Origin: Candidatus Nomurabacteria bacterium
GTDB taxonomy: Bacteria; Patescibacteriota; Minisyncoccia; Phycocordibacterales; UBA10002
Reading direction: 5' to 3'
Length of the DNA: 64,000 bases
Assembly (NCBI GenBank): GCA_943349725.1
Contig: CALQZP010000001.1
Span: 5,401 to 69,400, forward strand
Below are positions 8,483 to 51,140 of the stretch, one piece after another (the stretch's first letter is position 1; the number at the start of each line of letters is the position of its first letter). Position numbers and translations under genes: made by a program. Under the pieces are notes generated by a model. It was not told the DNA's origin, made no database searches, and saw nothing but the letters and a program-made list of their open reading frames with translations.

Positions 8483-8634
8483 CTGTAACTCTCCACGCCT
8501 GTCGAAATAAGGCTCTCTTGTTCCTCCTTTACTAAAGGAGGTGCCGAGTCTCTCGAGGCGGAGGATTTTTAAATCCCTCGGCCTACGGCCACTCCCTTTA
8601 GTAAAGGGAGAATAAGATGTGTGGAGAGTTACAA
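8483..8634. repeat. nested multi-hairpin palindromic region
   Basis: Outer stem gtaactctccaca/tgtggagagttac encloses two smaller palindromes (cctcctttactaaaggagg and ctccctttagtaaagggag). Confidence 0.5.
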
Positions 8635-8690
8635 ACTCCTTGAAGTTGCAAAAAGAAAACCGCTCCATTCGCCGAGGCGAATTGGAGCGG

Positions 8691-8791
8691 TAATTTGTTG
8701 TGGTGAACGCCGCATCGTTCACCTGTTAACCCAAAGAACTATCGCGCAAAGCGGTGCGCGAGCCCGTTTTAGAAAACGGGCAAAATGTTAC
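8691..8791. repeat. about 100 nt direct repeat, copy 1 (palindrome gtgaacgccgcatcgttcac plus cccgttttagaaaacggg hairpin)
   Basis: Roughly 96% identical to 9528-9624; overlaps the stop codon of the 8788-9393 gene. Confidence 0.75.
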
Positions 8792-9393
8792 GGGTCGCAC
8801 TCCGCGAGGGAGTTGACCCTGGGAACCTCCGCGGGCGGATCGAGGAGAAGTTCCTCGACCGTCGGGAGTGAATCCTCCCCCCTCCGGAGTAGCCGTGGGC
8901 AGTCCACGACCACGAAGCCTCCGTTTACCAACGCCTCCTTGTTGAGGTGCCGGTTAACCGCGGCGAGCGGCCAAAGGGGGTGGATGGGCGACGGGGAGGG
9001 GTCCCACTCCCCGTGGAGCTCGTCCCAAAGCTCGCGGTACTCCCAGTCTTTCGCAGGGCGCTCGTGCGCCCGGCAGTGCTCGTTCCGCTCAAGCACATTC
9101 GCCCTCTTGGTGAGGGCCATTGCCGTTGGCACCCGGAGGAGCGGTGCCGGAATACACAACCTTTCGTCCCCACTTTCAAGGCGGAGGACAAAGAGGTCGT
9201 AGTGGGCCTGACTGGCGCACTCGCCGGCAGGGTCGTCCGTTTCGAGCTCGACGACGAGCCCCTTCGCCGCCTCTTCACCCCTGAACAGGGCGTCAAGGAG
9301 GAGGCAGAAGACCGTGTTTGGCAGGGTGTAATTTTCCCCTGCCCCGATGTCTTTCGCCCTGTCCGCGAGGGCGAAAAGTTTTTTGATATCCAT
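8788..9393 (-). CDS. hypothetical protein, GC-island paralog family (copy A2)
   Basis: Translation is about 70% identical, with conservative substitutions, to 33938-34564; start at MDIKKLFALADRAK is preceded by a GGAAAGGAAGT RBS. Confidence 0.65.
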   Translation of the reverse strand: MDIKKLFALADRAKDIGAGENYTLPNTVFCLLLDALFRGEEAAKGLVVELETDDPAGECASQAHYDLFVLRLESGDERLCIPAPLLRVPTAMALTKRANVLERNEHCRAHERPAKDWEYRELWDELHGEWDPSPSPIHPLWPLAAVNRHLNKEALVNGGFVVVDCPRLLRRGEDSLPTVEELLLDPPAEVPRVNSLAECDP

Positions 9394-9527
9394 ACTTCCT
9401 TTCCGGCGCAACATCGCGCCAAGAAGTTTTTTTCTCGATAGGCCGACGATTGGTTTCCACACACATGGAAATCCTCGGCCTAATGAAGTCCAGCACCAGA
9501 AAATCCTTCGATTTGTTGGTGCTGGAA

Positions 9528-9624
9528 ATTGTTGTGGTGAACGCCGAATCGCTCACCGTTAACCCAAAGAACTATCGCGCAAAGCGGTGCGCGAGCCCGT
9601 TTTAGAAAACGGGCAAAATGTTAC
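9528..9624. repeat. about 100 nt direct repeat, copy 2
   Basis: Near-identical to 8691-8791. Confidence 0.75.
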
Positions 9625-9657
9625 CCTTTCACCGCCCCGTAGGACGGCGGGAGGTGA

Positions 9658-10119
9658 TCAATACCCGACTGGGTACCACCACCTGGTGTGGCTCGGTCCC
9701 GGCTTCCACCTTGTCCCCGTGTCGGGGTGGGACTCGAATCCCTCCTGGTGGTTGGGGGTGTAAAACCCCTTCTCCACCTCCTCGTCCAAGTAGACGAGGT
9801 CGTTGAGGGTGGCCCGGCGGAGATGGGCCCAGTTATGCCTACACACGGAGCTCCCGCCCCAGTGGGAGACTCGTTGCGAGTCAACCCCCTCCCTGTACAC
9901 CCATGGGAGGGTGAACAGGGAATTCTCCCTGTTGTTTCTGGCCGAAACAACAACCCCCTGCTGATAGTGGGTTCCAAGAACCCACCCCTCCATATCGAGG
10001 GTGGCGTAGAAAACCCCGTCCTGCTGGTGCAGGTGACGGATGGACCCCTCCTTCGAGAAGTCCATAATTTCCGCCAACGAACCCGCCACCGCCACTCCCG
10101 TAATTTCAATTTTTTTCAT
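9658..10119 (-). CDS. hypothetical protein (GC-island gene A1)
   Basis: 153 aa ORF; AAGGAAG RBS before the ATG; about 65% GC; no recognised family. Confidence 0.5.
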   Translation of the reverse strand: MKKIEITGVAVAGSLAEIMDFSKEGSIRHLHQQDGVFYATLDMEGWVLGTHYQQGVVVSARNNRENSLFTLPWVYREGVDSQRVSHWGGSSVCRHNWAHLRRATLNDLVYLDEEVEKGFYTPNHQEGFESHPDTGTRWKPGPSHTRWWYPVGY

Positions 10120-10749
10120 TTTCTTCCTTCTTTTTCTCTTTTTTTTGTTGTTTGTTTCTTTGAACCCTGTTTAAAGTCGATGATTCAACGACTTTTGCCC
10201 AATGCTTACACAACATCGAGCTACCGAAACGACCGATTTCTCGGTCCTACCCAGAGCCTCCAGTTGGGCCAAGGGTGCTCTATCTCGGAATCGCAGTTAA
10301 TGAAATGCGACCCCTCTTGCTCTGCCGACACAGGTCGGCAAGGCGAAGAGGAGTAACATTTCGGAACGAATGACCGCTCCGCGTCTTCCTGTTTGAGGTT
10401 TTATCTTCACCTCAAACTTTCTTCTGCCTATTCGGTTGTCAAAGAATCAAACATACAGTATACCATGTACCATATATAAAGTCAATAGGTGGGGAGGGCT
10501 GAAAAAGCTATGATTAGAGCCATGAAAAACTCCGCCTTTATTGATGCGCAAACTGAAAAAGGAAGTCAGAGAGAAGATAACAGGACTTATGTACACCCCT
10601 CCCGCGCTAGACGCGTGTGTGCTCCCCTTGTTAGGGGAGAATTAAGACAAAGTTGCGTAAGTCCTAGATAAATTATATGAATAATCTTAATCATAAAATC
10701 GGCAGAGGTTGGAAACGAAAACGCACCGCGCAGACACGAGGACTGCGAG

Positions 10750-14954: not shown

Positions 14955-15104
14955 TTAATTGCGAGAAACTTCTCGACGAAACCGCACGTTATCGTTCGCG
15001 TTCTGCACGTCGTTGTAATTCACGTTCACCGTACCATTGCTGCGATTGAAGTTCACATACGGCACGTTCTCGTCGGGAAGGCGGTTCGTCCTGTCTTTCT
15101 CCAT
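14955..15104 (-). CDS. 49 aa orphan ORF homologous to the C-terminal tail of the 15418-16269 protein
   Basis: MEKDRTNRLPDENVPYVNFNRSNGTVNVNYNDVQNANDNVRFRREVSRN aligns to ...RLPDERVPCVHFNRGLGGVNVYCYDV...VRFRRAV of the upstream gene; the underlying roughly 110 nt DNA repeats are about 80% identical. Confidence 0.35.
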   Translation of the reverse strand: MEKDRTNRLPDENVPYVNFNRSNGTVNVNYNDVQNANDNVRFRREVSRN

Positions 15105-15417: not shown

Positions 15418-16269
15418 CTATTGCGGAAGTGAAGAAGTTTGAAGGTTTGAAGGAACAACTGCTCGACGAAACCGCACGTCCGCGAGCGCGAGCAGCACGT
15501 CATAGCAATACACGTTCACCCCACCAAGGCCGCGATTGAAGTGCACACACGGCACGCGCTCGTCGGGAAGGCGGGAGTCAGTACAGAAGGTTATAACGCC
15601 TTGGTCCGGATGAACGCTGTACTGTCTCCCATATGCTCGTCCAAAGAGTTGGCGCATAGGAACCGTAGTAGTTGTCCACGGGAGTTCGCGAACGGCAACC
15701 GTATGAAGATTGATCGGACTGTTCGTGCCCTTTCCAAGACATCCATCCGGAGCCTCCTGCTCATCCGCGACCCAAAAGCCAAAGGTACCGGTGTGTTTGT
15801 GCGTCATCTCCACATCGTCAAGGCTTTTATCACCGGAAAATCTCGAGACCTTGCCACCATAGGCTTTTTTATCGGACTGGAAGAAAAACTCCGCCGACTG
15901 CGCCACCTTTTCGTGCATTAGGCAGAAACGGGCTTTGTAGCCGAGGGGTTGGCGTGGGATAAGGAGTCCGGCGAAATCGGTTTTCATGCCGTATTCGTCG
16001 CTCCAGAACTTTTCTTCCCGCTGTGCGAGTTCGCTCGGAATGGTAATAAGCGACGAATCCGTCTTCGTCGATTCTTTGAGCGCAATGCGCTGGTCGCAAC
16101 CGAGATGCGCGACCGTCCGCACCAACTCTGACACCTGCGGATGATTTTCGTTCTTGAGCAAATAATACACTTCAGCATCCGACAGAACGCCGACACTATT
16201 CGCAAATCTGCCCGCGAGGGTCAATCTTTGCTGTACTTCTTCTGTCACCAACAAGGGGGCCTTAGTCAT
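15418..16269 (-). CDS. hypothetical protein (283 aa)
   Basis: Long ORF with an RBS-like purine run upstream; no family recognised. Confidence 0.5.
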   Translation of the reverse strand: MTKAPLLVTEEVQQRLTLAGRFANSVGVLSDAEVYYLLKNENHPQVSELVRTVAHLGCDQRIALKESTKTDSSLITIPSELAQREEKFWSDEYGMKTDFAGLLIPRQPLGYKARFCLMHEKVAQSAEFFFQSDKKAYGGKVSRFSGDKSLDDVEMTHKHTGTFGFWVADEQEAPDGCLGKGTNSPINLHTVAVRELPWTTTTVPMRQLFGRAYGRQYSVHPDQGVITFCTDSRLPDERVPCVHFNRGLGGVNVYCYDVLLALADVRFRRAVVPSNLQTSSLPQ

Positions 16270-16909: not shown

Positions 16910-16982
16910 CCGCCCATAGCTCAGCTGGTAGAGCAGCTCGCTTTTAACGAGAAGGTCCTTGGTTCAAATCCAAGTGGGCGGA
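16910..16982 (+). tRNA. tRNA-Lys (anticodon TTT)
   Basis: Acceptor ccgccca/tgggcgg, D-arm gctc-agctggtag-agc, anticodon loop cTTTTaa, T-arm cttgg-ttcaaat-ccaag; close to canonical tRNA-Lys. Confidence 0.85.
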
Positions 16983-17017: not shown

Positions 17018-17845
17018 GTGGAATCTTTCAAAAATAAGTGCATTGCGCTACGAACGAAGGGGCTCACCCTAAGTCAAATAGTAGCCCGAACAAAACGCCC
17101 GAAAACGTCAGTGTATTTTCATATACGGAATATTCATTTACCCGAAGACCGAAAACAGGAAATACGCCGTGCAGCAACACAAAGATTTATCAATTACAAC
17201 AAGAGTAGAAAAGGTAAAAGCAGGATGAATCGTCATCCAATCCCGTTTGAGAAATGGAACGTGGCTCTTGTGTCCTTAGTGGGACATTTAATCTTTGACG
17301 GGGAAATAAAACACGGCGGATGCGTATATACAAATAGAAGCCTAGCGCTTCTTAAGCACGTTGCTGCGTGTATGCAAACGATATACCCGTTTGCGCCAAA
17401 AAGATACGAATCACTTCCAGGAGTTCATAAAATTGGATACCACAACGTAGAACTAAATGATTTCTTCAAGTCAAAAGCGAAGGAATTGATTGTGAAAATC
17501 AAATGTATGGAAAGAGAACTTCAACGTTCGTTCCTCCGAGCTTTTTTTGACGATGAAGGTTCCGTATACTTTATCGGCAAACGCAGAGCGATTAGAGGCT
17601 ACCAACACAATGCTAAAATGCTACACCTTGTGCAGCATCTGCTAAGAAACTTCAGCATAGAAAGCAAGGTGGACAGTAAATACAACGAAGTTACCATTAC
17701 CCGAAGAGAAAATATCTTACAATTTGCACAAGAAATAAATTTCTCCAAGGGACTGCGGATAAATGGGAATCGTTCAAACAGTATCTGGAAAGAGTCGCTT
17801 GAAAAACGTGAGTTGCTTCGGCGAGCACTTGCGTCATATGAGTGA
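17018..17845 (+). CDS. free-standing double-motif LAGLIDADG homing endonuclease-like protein with N-terminal HTH
   Basis: 275 aa; two LAGLIDADG-like motifs (LVGHLIFDGEI and FLRAFFDDEGSV). Confidence 0.6.
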   Translation: MESFKNKCIALRTKGLTLSQIVARTKRPKTSVYFHIRNIHLPEDRKQEIRRAATQRFINYNKSRKGKSRMNRHPIPFEKWNVALVSLVGHLIFDGEIKHGGCVYTNRSLALLKHVAACMQTIYPFAPKRYESLPGVHKIGYHNVELNDFFKSKAKELIVKIKCMERELQRSFLRAFFDDEGSVYFIGKRRAIRGYQHNAKMLHLVQHLLRNFSIESKVDSKYNEVTITRRENILQFAQEINFSKGLRINGNRSNSIWKESLEKRELLRRALASYE

Positions 17846-24743: not shown

Positions 24744-24858
24744 AAAAAGAGCATAGCACGCCTTGAATAGTGAAGTAAGAATAATGAATTAAGGTGATAT
24801 CTTCCCTTACCATACTTCCTAATTCATACTTCATAATTCACTCCAATATTGTGCTACA

Positions 24859-30446: not shown

Positions 30447-30522
30447 GGGGTCCTCCTTTCACTTAAATTTTCTTCCTACTCTCCCACAAAACCATTGTCT
30501 TGCGAGAGTGATAAGAAGGTGA

Positions 30523-30543
30523 ACGCCGTATCGTTCACCAAAA
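30523..30543. repeat. palindrome gtgaacgccgtatcgttcac, third copy
   Basis: Same palindrome as in the 8691 and 9528 repeats. Confidence 0.6.
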
Positions 30544-30600
30544 CCCTAAACCTTTTCTTTTTGAATGTTGCACCGAATACGGTCGGCGTTTTATTCTTTA

Positions 30601-31275: not shown

Positions 31276-31496
31276 ATTGCTATGAACAACGACTCTATGA
31301 GCCGACCAACACTATTGCCCGGCTCAATAAAGTCCAGCACAACCGACCAAGGAAGTGCTGGGTAAATGTTGGAGAATTAACCCATTCTTTCTGAACAATT
31401 CTCCTTTTGTTCATAAAGTCACAAGAGCCCGCAATACCGCTCTTGCATAACTTCTACCAATCACGCATTGCGACGCGTGTCCGATTTTAGTCGGGA

Positions 31497-32474
31497 TTAT
31501 TTGAGATGGCGGGCCACCACCTCGACCACCTGCTCGACCGTCAGGGTCGAACTGACTCCTTGCGGAGAACCCCCAATAGTCGGCGACCCGCCCCAGCCGG
31601 GTTCAAGCCCCGCCAACTCGGCGAGTGCTGCTTTGATGTCCGCGAACCTGGCCGCCTCAAACGCGCACACCGTAAACTTACGGTGTGGTTCGCCCACACC
31701 GAGCTTGAAACTCGGATTGAGGGCGACCACCACAGGGGCCAGGGAGTACCCGACCATCGTGGCGGCACGATGAGTGGACTCCACGACAGCAATTTTGTCG
31801 TCTGCCGTGGTCAAGTGTTTGATGGCACCCGACTCCAGCGCGCCGACCATCTCGTCGCGCTCCTTCTCCACCTGCTCGCGGTAGCGAGCAGGTTCCTCGC
31901 CGGTCAGAAGCCACTTTTCCATCGTGGCGACCCGCTCGGCGAACGGGACCTTGAAGTCCGCCACCGCCGCGTTGATTGCGGCGAGCGGACGAGAGCTTTC
32001 GGCCGAGGCGCTCTCCTCCGGCCACGGATTGTCCGCGGTCGGAAGCGGTCGAGGCCCGGGATAACCACCCCAAGCAAATTTATCGGCCTTGGCGACCTTT
32101 TTCACCTGCTCCTGGCAAAAAAAAGTTGGCATATCACAACACCCACCACTGCTCTCCAACAGATGGTGACGAATCCCAATGACTGACATTGCCCCGACGG
32201 AGTCCAGATCGGGTCGCACGGTGGCCAGCGTTGTCCATTCCGCCGGCATTTCAATGCCGATCACGACCTCGATGGCCGACCTTCCAGCGTTTCCGCCGGT
32301 GTGTTGGGGGTCAATGTTCCCCAGTGAGCACCGTGCCGCCAATGCGGGCACGGTGACCTCGATCCCGAGAACCGGCCCCGATGCAAAGATCGCGTCGTTG
32401 GCCGCTTGAGCGGATGGGAGGTTTCGGGGATCCAGCACCGCGAATTTATAATTCTTCATAACAATTTCACTCAT
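31497..32474 (-). CDS. hypothetical protein, 325 aa (island B)
   Basis: Long GC-rich ORF with conserved-looking Gly-rich segments; no family recognised. Confidence 0.45.
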   Translation of the reverse strand: MSEIVMKNYKFAVLDPRNLPSAQAANDAIFASGPVLGIEVTVPALAARCSLGNIDPQHTGGNAGRSAIEVVIGIEMPAEWTTLATVRPDLDSVGAMSVIGIRHHLLESSGGCCDMPTFFCQEQVKKVAKADKFAWGGYPGPRPLPTADNPWPEESASAESSRPLAAINAAVADFKVPFAERVATMEKWLLTGEEPARYREQVEKERDEMVGALESGAIKHLTTADDKIAVVESTHRAATMVGYSLAPVVVALNPSFKLGVGEPHRKFTVCAFEAARFADIKAALAELAGLEPGWGGSPTIGGSPQGVSSTLTVEQVVEVVARHLK

Positions 32475-32849
32475 CTCAAAATAAAAACAAAGCTGTATCA
32501 GTTTTTTCGATACGGTCTTTGTCTTTCATACTGCGCGGGTTTCTATGTCGCGCAAATATGTCATCTCGAATTTTTCGACAAGTGAGCGGGGGTCTAGACT
32601 GTCCCCATTCACTGGTCGAAGTAAGTGAAATTACTATGAATACCTGTCTACAGACCGGCAAAATTTGTCGGCCTGATAAACAGGAGAAGTTTTTAACCGA
32701 AAACTTCTCCACATAACCCTTGCGATTATTTTTCTCGGGAAATCGTCCTTCCCAACGCACTGCATGCGAGGCTCACGCTTTAAAAAGGTGACAACAATTA
32801 GTGCTTCTGTAGCGAAAGTTGCACTATCTTTCGGATGTCTTTCCATCAG

Positions 32850-33740: not shown

Positions 33741-33937
33741 TTTATAATTTTCACACTTCCTTTCTGGCGTTACACGCGCCAAAAGTTTTCTTGATGGGCC
33801 AACGACTTTTCCGCACACACGGAGAATTGCAAGCCCAATAAAGGGGAGGAACGAAAACCCTTTCGTTCCTCCTTTGAAACCTTAACCTTTTCGCACCTTT
33901 AAAAGTGCGAGCGCGTTTTAGAAAACGCGCAAAATGT

Positions 33938-34564
33938 TTACACTCTCACCGCTTCTGGGTGGAGTGCCCAGTACTCGGCCGTACTGGAAAGTCCCAGCTC
34001 CGCCGGAGGCGGGTTGACGAGAAGCTCCTCGACCGTCGGGAGCAGCTGCCCCTTCCCCTTTAGTGACCGCGGGATCTCCGCGACCACAAACCCTCCCCGA
34101 ACCAGCGCCTCTTTGTTGAGGTGCCGATTGACCGCAGCGAGCGGCCAATAGGGGTGGATTGGGGAGGGAGAAGGCTCCCACTCCCCGTGGAGCTCATCCC
34201 AGAGCTCCGATAGCTCCCACTCCCCAGGAGCCTCGTGCTCCCGAGAGTGTTCCACTCGGCCGACTCGATTGGCCCGCTTCGTCATCGCCATGGCCGTCTC
34301 CACCCGGAGGAGCGGTGCCGGTATGCATAGCTTTTCGTTTCCGCCCGGCAAGCGGAGAACGAAGAGGTCGTAGTACGCCTGGTCGGCGAAATGACCCTCG
34401 TCGTCCTCAGTTTCGAGGTCGACGACGAGTCCCTGCGCCTCCTCGTTGCCCCTGAAAAGGGCTTCGAGAAGAACGCAGAAAACTGCGTTGGGGAGGGAAT
34501 AATCTTCCCCTCCCCCAATTGTCTTCGCCCTGTCTGCAAGGGCGAAAAGTTTTTTAATGTCCAT
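33938..34564 (-). CDS. hypothetical protein, GC-island paralog family (copy B2)
   Basis: Paralog of 8788-9393 (DIKKLFALADRAK...LCIPAPLLRV...ELWDELHGEW...PLAAVNRHLNKEALV). Confidence 0.65.
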   Translation of the reverse strand: MDIKKLFALADRAKTIGGGEDYSLPNAVFCVLLEALFRGNEEAQGLVVDLETEDDEGHFADQAYYDLFVLRLPGGNEKLCIPAPLLRVETAMAMTKRANRVGRVEHSREHEAPGEWELSELWDELHGEWEPSPSPIHPYWPLAAVNRHLNKEALVRGGFVVAEIPRSLKGKGQLLPTVEELLVNPPPAELGLSSTAEYWALHPEAVRV

Positions 34565-34745
34565 ACTTCCTTTCCGGCGCGACACTGCGCCAAACAGCTT
34601 TCTCTATAGGCCGACGATTGATTCCGCACACACGGAGAATTGCAAGCCCAATAAAGGGGAGAAGTTTTTAACCAAAAACTTCTCCCATAACCCCATGCAA
34701 CAATTTATCCATCTAATGGAAAGGAAGTTGCTCTTCCTTTGCGCT

Positions 34746-35552: not shown

Positions 35553-36136
35553 TTTTCCTTTCCGGTGTATCTCTACACCTTTTTTGTTTTTTTATTTCTT
35601 CGAACCCATTCGGATCCAAAAAAACGGAATCGTCTTTGCGATCCCTCTTACCCCACCAACCTTAAGTCTTTCGATCTATCAATAAGTGGGGCGAAGAGGA
35701 ATAACATTGCGGAACGATTTGTTCCACGTTTTCCTAATTCGCTATTCTGTTTTCAAAGTTCATCCTTACTCTCTCCTTTCACTTCCGCGCAACTCTCTCT
35801 TCCTTGCCCGAACAAGTCTTCTTGTTTTAGGGTAATTCAGATTGCGTGGCTTCCTGGTGTAAGGACATTTTGGAATACAAAGCGGGTTAGACCTTATATT
35901 CCATCGATGTCCTTGCGAGCCTTCTCGCGAACAACGTGCGGTGAGTTTGCCTGTAGGCATAGCTCCTTTATTTGGGTAGGTTTCGAAGCCACACAAATAT
36001 AGAGCACTCACCATTCGAAACGAGACTTTCATAAGCTTGCTTCTCTCCCCACTCTCTCTTCTTTCTACGCTTAGTCCCTTGCGGGAAGGTCGTAGTACCC
36101 TCGAGCACTAACTTGTGCGTGCGCTATAATTGCAAT

Positions 36137-36391
36137 ATGTATTATGTATACTTTTTGCAAAGTGGTGTTGGTAAAACCTATATCGGCTATACCAACGACC
36201 TGAAGCGCAGACTCGCACAACATAACTCCTCGCAAAGTACCTACACTCGAAATCAAAAGTGGCGACTTGTGTACTACGAAGCTTACGCTTCTAAAGCTGA
36301 TGCCGTGTGTCGAGAAAAATGTCTCAAGCAACGCGGTCAAGCTGTACGCCAACTTAAAGATCGTGTATCTGAATCTTTACGCACAAGTTAG
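36137..36391 (+). CDS. GIY-YIG nuclease family protein
   Basis: MYYVYFLQSGVGKTYIGYTNDLKRRLAQHN is a canonical GIY-YIG (URI) motif. Confidence 0.75.
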   Translation: MYYVYFLQSGVGKTYIGYTNDLKRRLAQHNSSQSTYTRNQKWRLVYYEAYASKADAVCREKCLKQRGQAVRQLKDRVSESLRTS

Positions 36392-36648
36392 TGCTCGGCT
36401 AGAGGCGGGGAGCAAACTTATGGCTATCTCCTCAATGAACCATTCGACAAGCTCATGGCAAGCTATCTGACTCACCCATTCACCTGTCTTTACTCTCTGG
36501 GCAAAATAGTACAGGTTTTCTTATGTTCTGTCAATTATCTATGTCAGATAAGCCTATTTAGGCGTAACACACTCAAAAATATGACTTATCCACAGTCTAT
36601 ATTTGTCATAGATTTGTAACAAAAACAGATTAATGTTAGGATAGCTCC

Positions 36649-43072: not shown

Positions 43073-43615
43073 ATGCGCATTATTGCTATTGACCCTGGAT
43101 ACGAGCGTCTTGGTATCGCCGTGGTTGAGAAACTTCCACGGCAGAAGGAGATGCTTTTGTATTCCACTTGTATACGTACACCAAAAACGCTTCCCCACTC
43201 GGCACGCCTTTTGAAAATTGCGGGCAAGGTGCGAGAAGTGATTAGAGAGTACGAGCCGGAGGGATTTGCCATTGAAACACTGTTCTTCGCCACCAACCAC
43301 AAAACCGTGATGCCTGTTGCCGAGGCGCGTGGTGCGGTGCTTGTGGAGGCGGCAAGGGCAGGACTTCCCGTCTACGAATACACACCCCTTCAGATAAAGA
43401 TGGCGGTTACCGGCTACGGCAAAAGCGACAAAACCCAGGTCACCGAAATGGTGAAGAAGCTTATTGCAATGCCTTCAGAAAAATCCCTCCCCCTCGAAGA
43501 CTCGGGTACTCCCTTTACAAAAGGGAGAATACGCCTGGACGATGAGTATGACGCAATTGCGGTGGGACTGACCTGCCTGGCATCACAGAAATGGAACAGG
43601 GACCATGAAATATGA
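43073..43615 (+). CDS. ruvC: crossover junction endodeoxyribonuclease RuvC
   Basis: MRIIAIDPGYERLGIAVVE plus the RNase H-like fold. Confidence 0.85.
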   Translation: MRIIAIDPGYERLGIAVVEKLPRQKEMLLYSTCIRTPKTLPHSARLLKIAGKVREVIREYEPEGFAIETLFFATNHKTVMPVAEARGAVLVEAARAGLPVYEYTPLQIKMAVTGYGKSDKTQVTEMVKKLIAMPSEKSLPLEDSGTPFTKGRIRLDDEYDAIAVGLTCLASQKWNRDHEI

Positions 43616-45124: not shown

Positions 45125-45238
45125 AGCCTAACGGTACCACACCTTACGTGAATAATGAATTAAGAATTCAGAATTAAGGGAAAGAAATTAAACTGGCCTC
45201 TTCCTTACTTCATAATTCATACTTCATAATTCTTTCTC

Positions 45239-50580: not shown

Positions 50581-50848
50581 AAGATAATGAAATATGGAAT
50601 ATGAACTATATAATAAGAAAGCTAATCGGATATCTTATGGTATATGGTTCATATTCCATTTCTTAGTGGTACTAGTATATACCGATAACCGAAATGCAAA
50701 ACTTGTGAAAAAACCTGTGATATGTTAATAATATGTGGACAAGTTGGGGACAAGACCATATGGACCACATAACATGGATCACGTAACATCAGGCAGTCTC
50801 AAGAAAAGTCTTGTATTCCGTGTTTCATAATTCATAATCCATTTCTTT

Positions 50849-51037: not shown

Positions 51038-51064
51038 TAGGGCTTACACATTTCGCACTTTTCT

Positions 51065-51140
51065 GTCATTCCAGCGAAAGCTGGAATCCAGTGTTAGGCC
51101 ATTTTCTGAAGTCCTGGATTCCAGTTTTCACTGGAATGAC
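51065..51140. repeat. twin-hairpin palindromic element (gtcattccagcgaaagctggaatcc family), copy 2
   Basis: attccagc-GAAA-gctggaat hairpin plus ggattccag-ttttca-ctggaatgac hairpin; shares its 5' half with 2763-2817. Confidence 0.6.

Follow-up and report, generated by a model that had tools for sequence, protein, structure and literature searches.

The Patescibacteria (CPR) represent a large and poorly understood share of bacterial diversity, and their gene regulation is barely known. In a 64-kb stretch of a Patescibacteria metagenome contig (ENA ERZ27280297 k141_995313; the whole stretch is hereafter called the window), an ORFan gene, geneA, is bracketed by two nearly identical copies of an element of about 100 nt. 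A first-pass annotation attributed this arrangement to a recent duplication or recombination of a repeat-gene unit, as in cassette arrays. Here, we ask what the element is and how it came to lie on both sides of the gene.

The repeat pair was confirmed by self-comparison of the window and by blastn. Positions 8695-8791 (copy 1) and 9529-9624 (copy 2) were 96.9% identical over 97 nt with one 1-nt indel, close to the 96% first read by eye, and 67 nt (8725-8791 and 9558-9624) were 100% identical. Weaker similarity reached out to 8682 and 9516. The palindrome GTGAACGCCGCATCGTTCAC was found at 8703-8722, with variants at 9537-9556 (two mismatches) and 30519-30538 (one mismatch), giving three matches in the window against 0 expected from 100 shuffles. 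The hairpin with CAAAATGTT was located at 8765-8789, 9598-9622, and 33914-33938, again against 0 expected from shuffles. As annotated, the TAA stop codon of geneA lies inside the element, within GTTAC; it is the complement of 8788-8790. The partial third copy expected at the stop codon of the paralog, geneA', was present as a repeat match at 33874-33940, and geneA' ends inside it. Other readings of the first-pass annotation needed correction. The palindrome near 30.5 kb does recur, ~4 nt away from where it had been placed (30523-30543), and it does not stand alone but is part of a complete module. The order given for the repeat also had to be turned round: with the genes encoded on the minus strand, the element sits 3' of each gene, and a reading in gene sense meets the hairpin before the palindrome. 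The suspicion of an assembly artefact was dispelled by an independent assembly from another sample (L002, ERZ27280223), which also contains both copies.

The repeats belong to two GC-rich islands (54-59% GC versus ~47%). Island 1 (~8.65-10.49 kb) is located between genes for a GT2 glycosyltransferase and a Mur ligase, and island 2 (~29.7-36.5 kb) between RuvB and a TrmB-family regulator. The position of island 2 is the same in the relatives L003, L006, L164, L169, and L171, and a TrmB-family gene adjoins this main locus in every case. The locus is chromosomal in Patescibacteria, with housekeeping genes on its flanks, and viral contigs and phage or plasmid records gave no true matches. Pfam scans of ORFs in and around the islands, along with the gene tables for these loci, recovered GT2, Mur ligase, TrmB, RuvB, RHH, and GIY-YIG proteins, and no integrase or transposase beside either island.

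All island genes are encoded on the minus strand, and nearly all are without a Pfam or PHROG match. geneA (8788-9393, 201 aa) has no Pfam, PHROG, or informative remote homolog, and its family holds only five close members but ~200 remote clusters. The first gene of island 1, geneB (9658-10119), encodes a 153-aa ORFan. geneA' (33938-34564), in island 2, shares 70% amino acid identity with geneA. The conserved core gene of the locus, in island 2 (31497-32474), encodes a 325-aa protein with a DHH/DHHA1-like fold and has more than 1000 homologs in Patescibacteria.

A sigma-70 consensus scan gave one strong match (10/12 positions) per island, at the head of the leader, and none inside any module or spacer; the other minus-strand matches were two weak ones (9/12) in island 2, outside the modules. 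On the minus strand of island 1, the promoter and leader occupy 10123-10485, with TTGACT-17-TATACT at 10457-10485 and a leader of ~330 nt. Their counterparts in island 2 occupy 35553-36534 on the same strand, with TTGACA-17-TACTAT at 36506-36534 and a long structured leader. The 3' domain of the leader (~10290-10400 in island 1) is common to 11 loci, including both islands of the window. The main-locus leader is conserved and structured, with a length of roughly 600-900 nt; in the window genome, the leader of island 2 contains a GIY-YIG ORF that runs on the opposite strand and interrupts it. A sigma-70 promoter made of TTGAGC and TAGAGT was ruled out, as the spacing between the two varies from 21 to 45 nt. 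Island 1 is closed by a canonical intrinsic terminator (8650-8690, minus strand), with a hairpin at 8660-8690 and a U-tract at 8650-8659. Each island is predicted to be a single transcription unit of one kind, with a module after each gene.

Read in gene sense, the module follows the order stop codon, AAUUUUGC, HP1, HP2, GGGUUA(A/U), and HP3, and it begins at the stop codon of the preceding gene or within ~40 nt of it. The HP3 position is filled by at least four types of sequence: alpha (GGUGAACG..CGUUCACC), beta (GGAGAAG..CUUCUCC), gamma (GGAGGAACG..CGUUCCUCC), and delta (CCAGCAC..GUGCUGG). In most spacers, HP3 is directly followed by (A/C)CUUUAUUGAGC, a U-rich tail that doubles as the 5' arm of HP4, a long hairpin with a 3' arm ending in GCUCAUAGAG. 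The base of HP4 (CTTTAT(T)GAGC / GCTCATAGAG) is conserved and consists of 6 bp, a bulged U, 4-5 bp, and an invariant U.G; the sequence of the upper stem is wholly different among copies, with pairing always kept.

The modules of the window are all on the minus strand. Copy 1 (alpha-type, 3' of geneA) comprises HP1 at 8762-8781, HP2 at 8742-8761, the GGGTTAAC linker at 8725-8732, and HP3-alpha at 8702-8723, and it matched the covariance model R1, described below, at 8690-8763 with 74.5 bits. It is truncated after HP3, without HP4, and the terminator that closes island 1 comes next. Copy 2 (alpha-type, between geneB and geneA, 70.1 bits with R1) comprises HP1 at 9595-9614, HP2 at 9575-9594, and HP3-alpha at 9536-9557; in its HP3, the stem has a change to G.U and the loop an alteration that weakens the predicted loop-loop pairing. 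Copy 2 continues into the 5' part of the geneB-geneA spacer (9405-9525), with a delta hairpin (9490-9525), the tail and HP4 (9434-9489), and the leader hairpin HP5 (9405-9420), which lies immediately upstream of a Shine-Dalgarno sequence and is followed by geneA. The third, partial copy (33845-33941, 3' of geneA') comprises HP1 at 33911-33930, HP2' at 33891-33910, and HP3-gamma at 33845-33872. Its HP1 has GCGCG/CGCGC in place of GCCCG/CGGGC, a double change that keeps the pairing, and its HP2 and HP3 differ in sequence and still fold. The fourth module (30506-30591, 57 bits), with a complete alpha-type HP2-HP3, is located 3' of a 224-aa gene. A beta-type module (34599-34745) lies upstream of geneA', with HP3-beta at 34657-34686 and the tail and HP4 at 34602-34656. 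Upstream of the DHH-like gene, a beta-type HP3 (32683-32710) and HP4 (32646-32681) together span 32646-32710, and upstream of the 224-aa gene, a delta hairpin and then HP4 (31293-31332, CTTTATTGAGCC...GGCTCATAGAG) span 31293-31370.

The first-pass annotation had asked whether the hairpin lacks a U-tract, and in copies 1 and 2 it does: HP1 is followed by UCGCG and HP3 by ACAACAA, and only HP2 carries a weak U-rich tail (UAGUUCUUUG). These copies are not intrinsic terminators, in which a G+C-rich hairpin is directly followed by a U-tract. In island 2, HP3 with CUUUAUU was terminator-like in a loose terminator scan; the HP3 of copies 1 and 2 has no such tail. The three-hairpin fold had z-scores of -3 to -5.5 versus shuffles in all three repeat copies. 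Several known RNA architectures were considered and rejected. A P1 helix closing HP2 and HP3, as in purine riboswitches, is not conserved; the GGGUUA linker, taken as a catalytic core, is missing in 3 of 22 copies; and the hammerhead-like CUGAUGG..GAAAG in the 32.8-kb spacer fits neither the core nor the stems. Rfam 15, searched with gathering and E-value thresholds, returned only tRNAs and chance-level matches.

Relatives of the element were sought in other genomes. Scanning metagenomes for the HP3-alpha pattern gave 30 loci; roughly half were true relatives extending into a full module, and the remaining loci were chance matches in GC-rich coding DNA. A scan of genome contigs used too degenerate a pattern and returned almost nothing but chance palindromes; only L087 was real among the matches listed. 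The covariance model R1 was built from 18 copies. At E<1e-5, it found 22 modules, spread over 15 loci of related Patescibacteria metagenomes. In the 64-kb window, R1 found three modules only, all inside the islands and in gene sense. A long sense ORF ended 0-77 nt upstream, mostly within 40 nt, in all 20 of the 22 modules with enough contig, and the genes preceding the modules are mutually unrelated.

The structure is supported by the pattern of sequence change. In the 22-module alignment, which was fitted to the model and thus leans toward structure, 92.8% of cells were paired, compared with at most 45% once partners were slid. Column shuffles gave 81%, and 0 of 500 reached the observed value, a control that overstates significance because the module sequences are related. 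Eleven pairs were altered on both sides, and 6 of the 7 pairs of the HP2 stem covary in this way. The HP4 set, pre-filtered for hairpin closure and hence also leaning toward structure, had 94.6% of cells paired and eight pairs altered on both sides, with upper stems unrelated in sequence. The HP2 loop, CCGCAU, is complementary to the HP3 loop, AUGCGG, and 89% of the loop-loop cells were paired. Compensatory variants were CCGUAU:AUACGG in the fourth module (window, 30.5 kb) and CCGCAA:UUGCGG in three loci; a further variant, CUGCAU:AUGCAG, was seen by eye in L087. This complementarity with compensatory changes indicates an HP2-HP3 kissing-loop fold. The stems hold 19 G.U pairs versus 5 A.C mismatches, and HP4 has its fixed U.G plus numerous G.U pairs, which points to the gene-sense strand, as RNA, as the strand that folds. 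The near-invariant stem and loop of HP3-alpha could also suit a sequence-specific protein site, and single-stranded DNA of the same strand could form identical hairpins.

How the repeat came to surround geneA can be approached by comparing genomes. The stems of HP1 and HP2 are identical in copies 1 and 2 and vary by compensation in other copies; functional constraint therefore cannot explain the identity, and the copying must be recent. A recent common origin of the two copies by duplication, gene conversion, or recombination is supported on this ground. The claim of a recently duplicated repeat-gene unit holds for the repeats but not for the unit as a whole, since geneA and geneA' are only 70% identical. 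Copy 2 also shows a sign of copying between modules: it keeps GCGGTGAAAGGGTAA, compared with GCGGTGAGAGTGTAA at the end of geneA', although it now follows geneB, and 11 nt on its gene-sense 5' side (9625-9635) match the final codons of a geneA'-type gene.

Close homologs of geneA were found in three other clusters only. In the L003-L006 loci, the same spacer blocks are 88-97% identical, and the shared proteins 47-70%. The gene order is 268aa - geneA' - 138aa - 111aa - DHH-like - 224aa - 73aa - 126aa in island 2 of the window, DHH-like - 561aa - 266aa - geneA - 82aa - 107aa in L003, and geneA - 266aa - 345aa - 103aa in L006. HP4 and HP5 are kept with geneA in all four copies from four genomes. 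The 3' flank type and the HP3 type differ among genomes, both after geneA and after the 268-aa gene, and gene, 3' flank type, and HP3 type re-assort independently among the window, L003, and L006. In island 2, an exact 40-nt repeat (33809-33848 and 34622-34661) links two modules and shows that the leader sequence of geneA' was copied in front of the 138-aa gene. L164 has a tandem duplication of gene plus module, with three paralogs and the same module after each. Population variation was also inspected. The sole variant seen, a 432-nt deletion in island 1 of L002, is not bounded by modules, and island 2 of the second sample is collinear, with no module-bounded variant. Since breakpoints are multiple and lie within conserved blocks, the pattern fits exchange at several points by homologous recombination or gene conversion and does not fit a single site-specific crossover.

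The G.U bias, the covariation, and the pairing between loops point to an RNA structure of the sense strand rather than a DNA recombination site. Were the modules integron-like sites, HP4 or the whole module would fold in single-stranded DNA as attC does, and a recombinase encoded at another location would excise and insert units of gene plus site, leaving the direct repeats around geneA. The single gene bracketed by the repeat and the tandem units of L164 agree with this, as do the co-oriented, mostly ORFan arrays behind one promoter, whose content and order vary among relatives, and the attC-like layout of HP4, with its conserved base, bulged base, and distal part variable in sequence and length. 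We consider it very unlikely all the same, for no integrase, transposase, or other recombinase was found in or beside the islands or the related loci examined, and RYYYAAC/GTTRRRY core sites are absent. HP4 goes with the following gene while the 3' flank and HP3 type re-assort separately, which implies multiple breakpoints, and an attC-type site would have no use for the HP2:HP3 covariation. The G.U bias here indicates the coding strand, whereas it is the bottom strand of attC that folds. The integron-like reading of the array is thus partly supported only: a co-oriented ORFan array with related spacers and variable order is present, but without an integrase, a transposase, or attC core sites.

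The palindromic HP3-alpha (GGTGAACG-N6-CGTTCACC) might instead be a double-stranded DNA operator for a dimeric regulator, such as one of the TrmB family, which would control island expression by binding between genes, with the rest of the repeat hitch-hiking. Its stem sequence is near-invariant in the 22 copies, it is a 22-bp inverted repeat, and the TrmB-family gene that always adjoins the main locus is divergently encoded. Against such an operator, which we regard as quite unlikely, the beta, gamma, and delta hairpins at the same position keep structure and not sequence, stem variants stay paired (GGTGAACTG..CAGTTCACC and GGTGAGCA..TGCTCACC), and covariation ties the central 6 nt to the loop of another hairpin, for which an operator has no need. 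The TrmB-leader promoter region, moreover, holds another conserved palindrome (TGTCACAAGTATATGACA-like) and no HP3-alpha. A functionless by-product, whether of recent local duplication, of a MITE/REP-type selfish element, or of assembly, would account for the near-identity of copies 1 and 2 as recent copying and for the mutations of copy 2 that weaken its loop pairing. It is nonetheless highly improbable. The independent assembly speaks against artefact, the architecture is kept in at least 15 loci of different genomes with covariation that indicates purifying selection on structure, and the element always follows a stop codon directly, in a single orientation. Elsewhere in the 64-kb window it is absent, and inspection by eye of the sequences read showed neither terminal inverted repeats nor target-site duplications.

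The modules probably form a new family of intercistronic RNA elements, folded from the sense strand and punctuating a polycistronic transcript, with their repeats serving as recombination substrates and giving rise to the geneA pair. In this model, one promoter and one structured leader would serve each island, and the modules would punctuate the resulting polycistronic mRNA. In the folded alpha module of the minus-strand RNA, the HP2 loop would kiss the HP3 loop. The modules probably act in attenuation, processing, or stability, a role read purely from their position and shape. The hairpin with its U-rich tail may be a leaky terminator or attenuator, the compact kissing fold may shield the 3' end of the preceding cistron from 3' exonucleases, and HP4 with HP5 may be a processing site or a 5' cap for the following cistron. 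The role in recombination is drawn from comparative mosaicism: near-identical blocks of 20-100 nt in one orientation would allow recombination or gene conversion to duplicate, delete, and re-assort genes, and copies 1 and 2 around geneA would be the product of a recent event of this kind between modules.

A bolder proposal would unite the modules, the leader RNA of roughly 600 nt, and the conserved DHH-like protein in an undescribed RNA-based system specific to Patescibacteria; it seems unlikely to us. The unit of kissing hairpins and HP4 could then be a new self-processing or enzyme-guided RNA punctuation element cutting the transcript into capped monocistronic mRNAs; alternatively, it could serve a non-integron gene-capture platform as its attachment site, with the recombinase gene lying elsewhere. 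Catalytic RNA and recombination of single-stranded DNA are each compatible with the conserved structure and the mosaic gene content.

If intercistronic modules of this kind are the correct reading, the element is a repeated regulatory cassette, or structured intergenic RNA, of a previously undescribed family; at least two RNA motifs match no Rfam family and have no description in the literature searched. A conserved expression architecture, consisting of one promoter, a large structured leader, and kissing-loop spacers, would thereby be exposed in the Patescibacteria. It would serve a widespread locus that combines the DHH-like core gene with fast-changing ORFans. Recombination between repeated regulatory modules is a suggested route by which accessory genes are gained, lost, and shuffled, one that would suit tiny genomes without obvious mobile-element machinery.

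Several known systems resemble the modules in part. In the early region of phage T7, RNase III cleaves at intercistronic processing hairpins, and the mRNA ends so produced keep protective hairpins. The modules likewise place long conserved hairpins between cistrons of a single long transcript, but their cleavage is putative, they resemble the T7 hairpins neither in sequence nor in shape (bulged U, conserved U.G), and their host is a CPR bacterium. REP/BIME and ERIC elements are transcribed intergenic repeats that can block 3' exonucleases and set differential expression within operons. Like the modules, they are repeated extragenic hairpins at the 3' ends of cistrons. REP/BIME and ERIC elements are genome-wide and occur in both orientations, whereas the modules belong to one kind of operon, with a modular HP1-HP5 build and loop-loop covariation. 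Dispersal of the REP/BIME or MITE type was not seen in the 64-kb window, where the copies occur in the two islands only and in gene sense.

Integron attC arrays share more features with the islands. In both, co-oriented, promoterless ORFans of variable content stand behind one promoter, and each gene is followed by a structured imperfect palindrome whose variable part conserves structure over sequence. attC core sites, R'' (RYYYAAC) and R' (GTTRRRY), lie at the base of one imperfect hairpin. IntI and such core sites were sought here, and neither was found; the GTAAC...GTTAAC of copies 1 and 2 is unconserved in other copies. The modules further differ from attC in having several hairpins with a tertiary loop-loop contact and a strand bias that fits the coding strand, and in breakpoints that do not fall at a fixed site among the window, L003, and L006. 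With no IntI or other recombinase, no R''/R' core sites, and no fixed breakpoint, the modules are not attC sites.

The closest working analog is the PeSL (promoter-early stem-loop) cassette of the hyperplastic regions of T4-type phages, where repeated regulatory cassettes can drive gene shuffling (PMC2839356, PMC4122927). The absence of an internal promoter and of a phage context places the modules outside that class. They occupy a syntenic TrmB-RuvB locus on a bacterial (Patescibacteria) chromosome, contain no detectable sigma-70 promoter, and are longer (100-250 nt); their kissing-loop fold covaries, their long hairpin has a conserved base, and no mini-circles have been seen with them. Like PeSL, they are short, conserved, composite regulatory cassettes with a stem-loop, one that scores as terminator-like in island 2, set in one orientation between small non-essential ORFan genes of variable regions, where they flank the ORFans and mark the boundaries of indels and replacements. 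Recombination between PeSL cassettes accounts for the insertion, deletion, replacement, and duplication of single genes, and the same is proposed for the modules described here.

The gene array at about 29.7-36.5 kb of the window is preceded by a non-coding, conserved leader of ~600-900 nt, which begins directly downstream of a TTGACA-17-TACTAT promoter and is divergent from the TrmB gene. It occupies window positions 35553-36505 on the minus strand, and its relatives were located in other metagenome loci at L003 4100-4936, L006 8110-8799, L164 1700-2490 and L148 7930-8650, and in L169 and L171. The blocks of the long leader are conserved and the insertion points are variable; a long-range helix, in which CATAAGTTTGCTCCCC pairs with GGGGAG..GCAAGCTTATG, covaries. 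A search of Rfam returned no match for the long leader, which is probably a large structured RNA that has not been described.

A 3' leader domain is common to window positions 35600-35760 and 10290-10400 (both minus), L170 8520-8690, and eight further loci. Its layout is ..GAAUAGCGAA..AGGAAAACGCGGAAC-loop-GUUCCGCAAUGUUAUUCCUCUUCGCC-hairpin-UAAGAGGGAUCGCA, and its stems covary. In the smaller island, at about 8.65-10.49 kb, and in L170, the domain stands alone as a short leader.

A GIY-YIG nuclease ORF (window 36113-36391, plus strand; Pfam E 4.5e-15) is inserted into a variable leader-RNA loop, on the strand opposite to the leader, and is absent in all four of the other aligned genomes. The insertion looks like the invasion of a conserved RNA gene by a homing endonuclease. 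A LAGLIDADG_3 homing-endonuclease-like gene lies elsewhere in the window (17018-17845, plus strand), directly downstream of the tRNA at 16910-16982.

In L002, a contig of a second sample, 432 nt (window 9830-10261) are missing, a stretch that takes in the leader's 3' portion together with the 5' portion of geneB, the first gene of the smaller island. The deletion junction carries a microhomology of 8/9 nt (AGATGGGCC / AGTTGGGCC). This deletion is a population variant, and the folded intercistronic modules do not bound it. An exact 40-nt repeat (window 33809-33848 and 34622-34661; also 9431-9455) spans the region of module hairpin HP4 5' of both geneA', the paralogue of geneA, and a 138-aa gene; the geneA leader, with its hairpin HP5 and Shine-Dalgarno sequence, has been copied ahead of an unrelated gene. 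In L164 (2489-3910), three small paralogous genes (147, 129, and 75 aa) stand in tandem, each followed by the same module of the alpha type and >150 nt of identical downstream sequence. The array is a tandem duplication via unequal exchange between modules.

Other repeats were noted in the window. Two kinds of short hairpin-type repeats, ACTCCCTTTAGTAAAGGGAGAATA-like (8586-8614 and 43503-43531) and TGTCATTCCAGCGGAAGCGGGAATCCA-like (2762-2788 and 51064-51090), lie outside the islands; they may represent REP-like elements or terminators of the host. Copies of an AT-rich repeat, CCTTACTTCATAATTCATACTTCATAATTC, ~81-93% identical, lie in divergent intergenic regions, close to where genes start (24808-24839, 45201-45232, and 50816-50842). 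A 118-nt direct repeat of 81% identity (14967-15084 and 15457-15574; spacing 490 nt) is near or inside a 283-aa ORF (15418-16269).

In another genome (L142/L157; L157 7637-8994), an AbiEi/AbiEii toxin-antitoxin pair and, upstream of it, a VWA_CoxE-like protein lie within the same variable locus or at its margin; therefore, the locus can carry defence-type genes. The core gene conserved at the TrmB-leader locus encodes a 325-aa protein (window 31497-32474, minus strand) in which no Pfam domain was found. It has >1000 homologues across Patescibacteria, with 56-69% identity among the best 120 listed, and its AlphaFold model (pLDDT 88) is similar to the DHH/DHHA1 phosphoesterases PggH, NrnA, RecJ, and GdpP.
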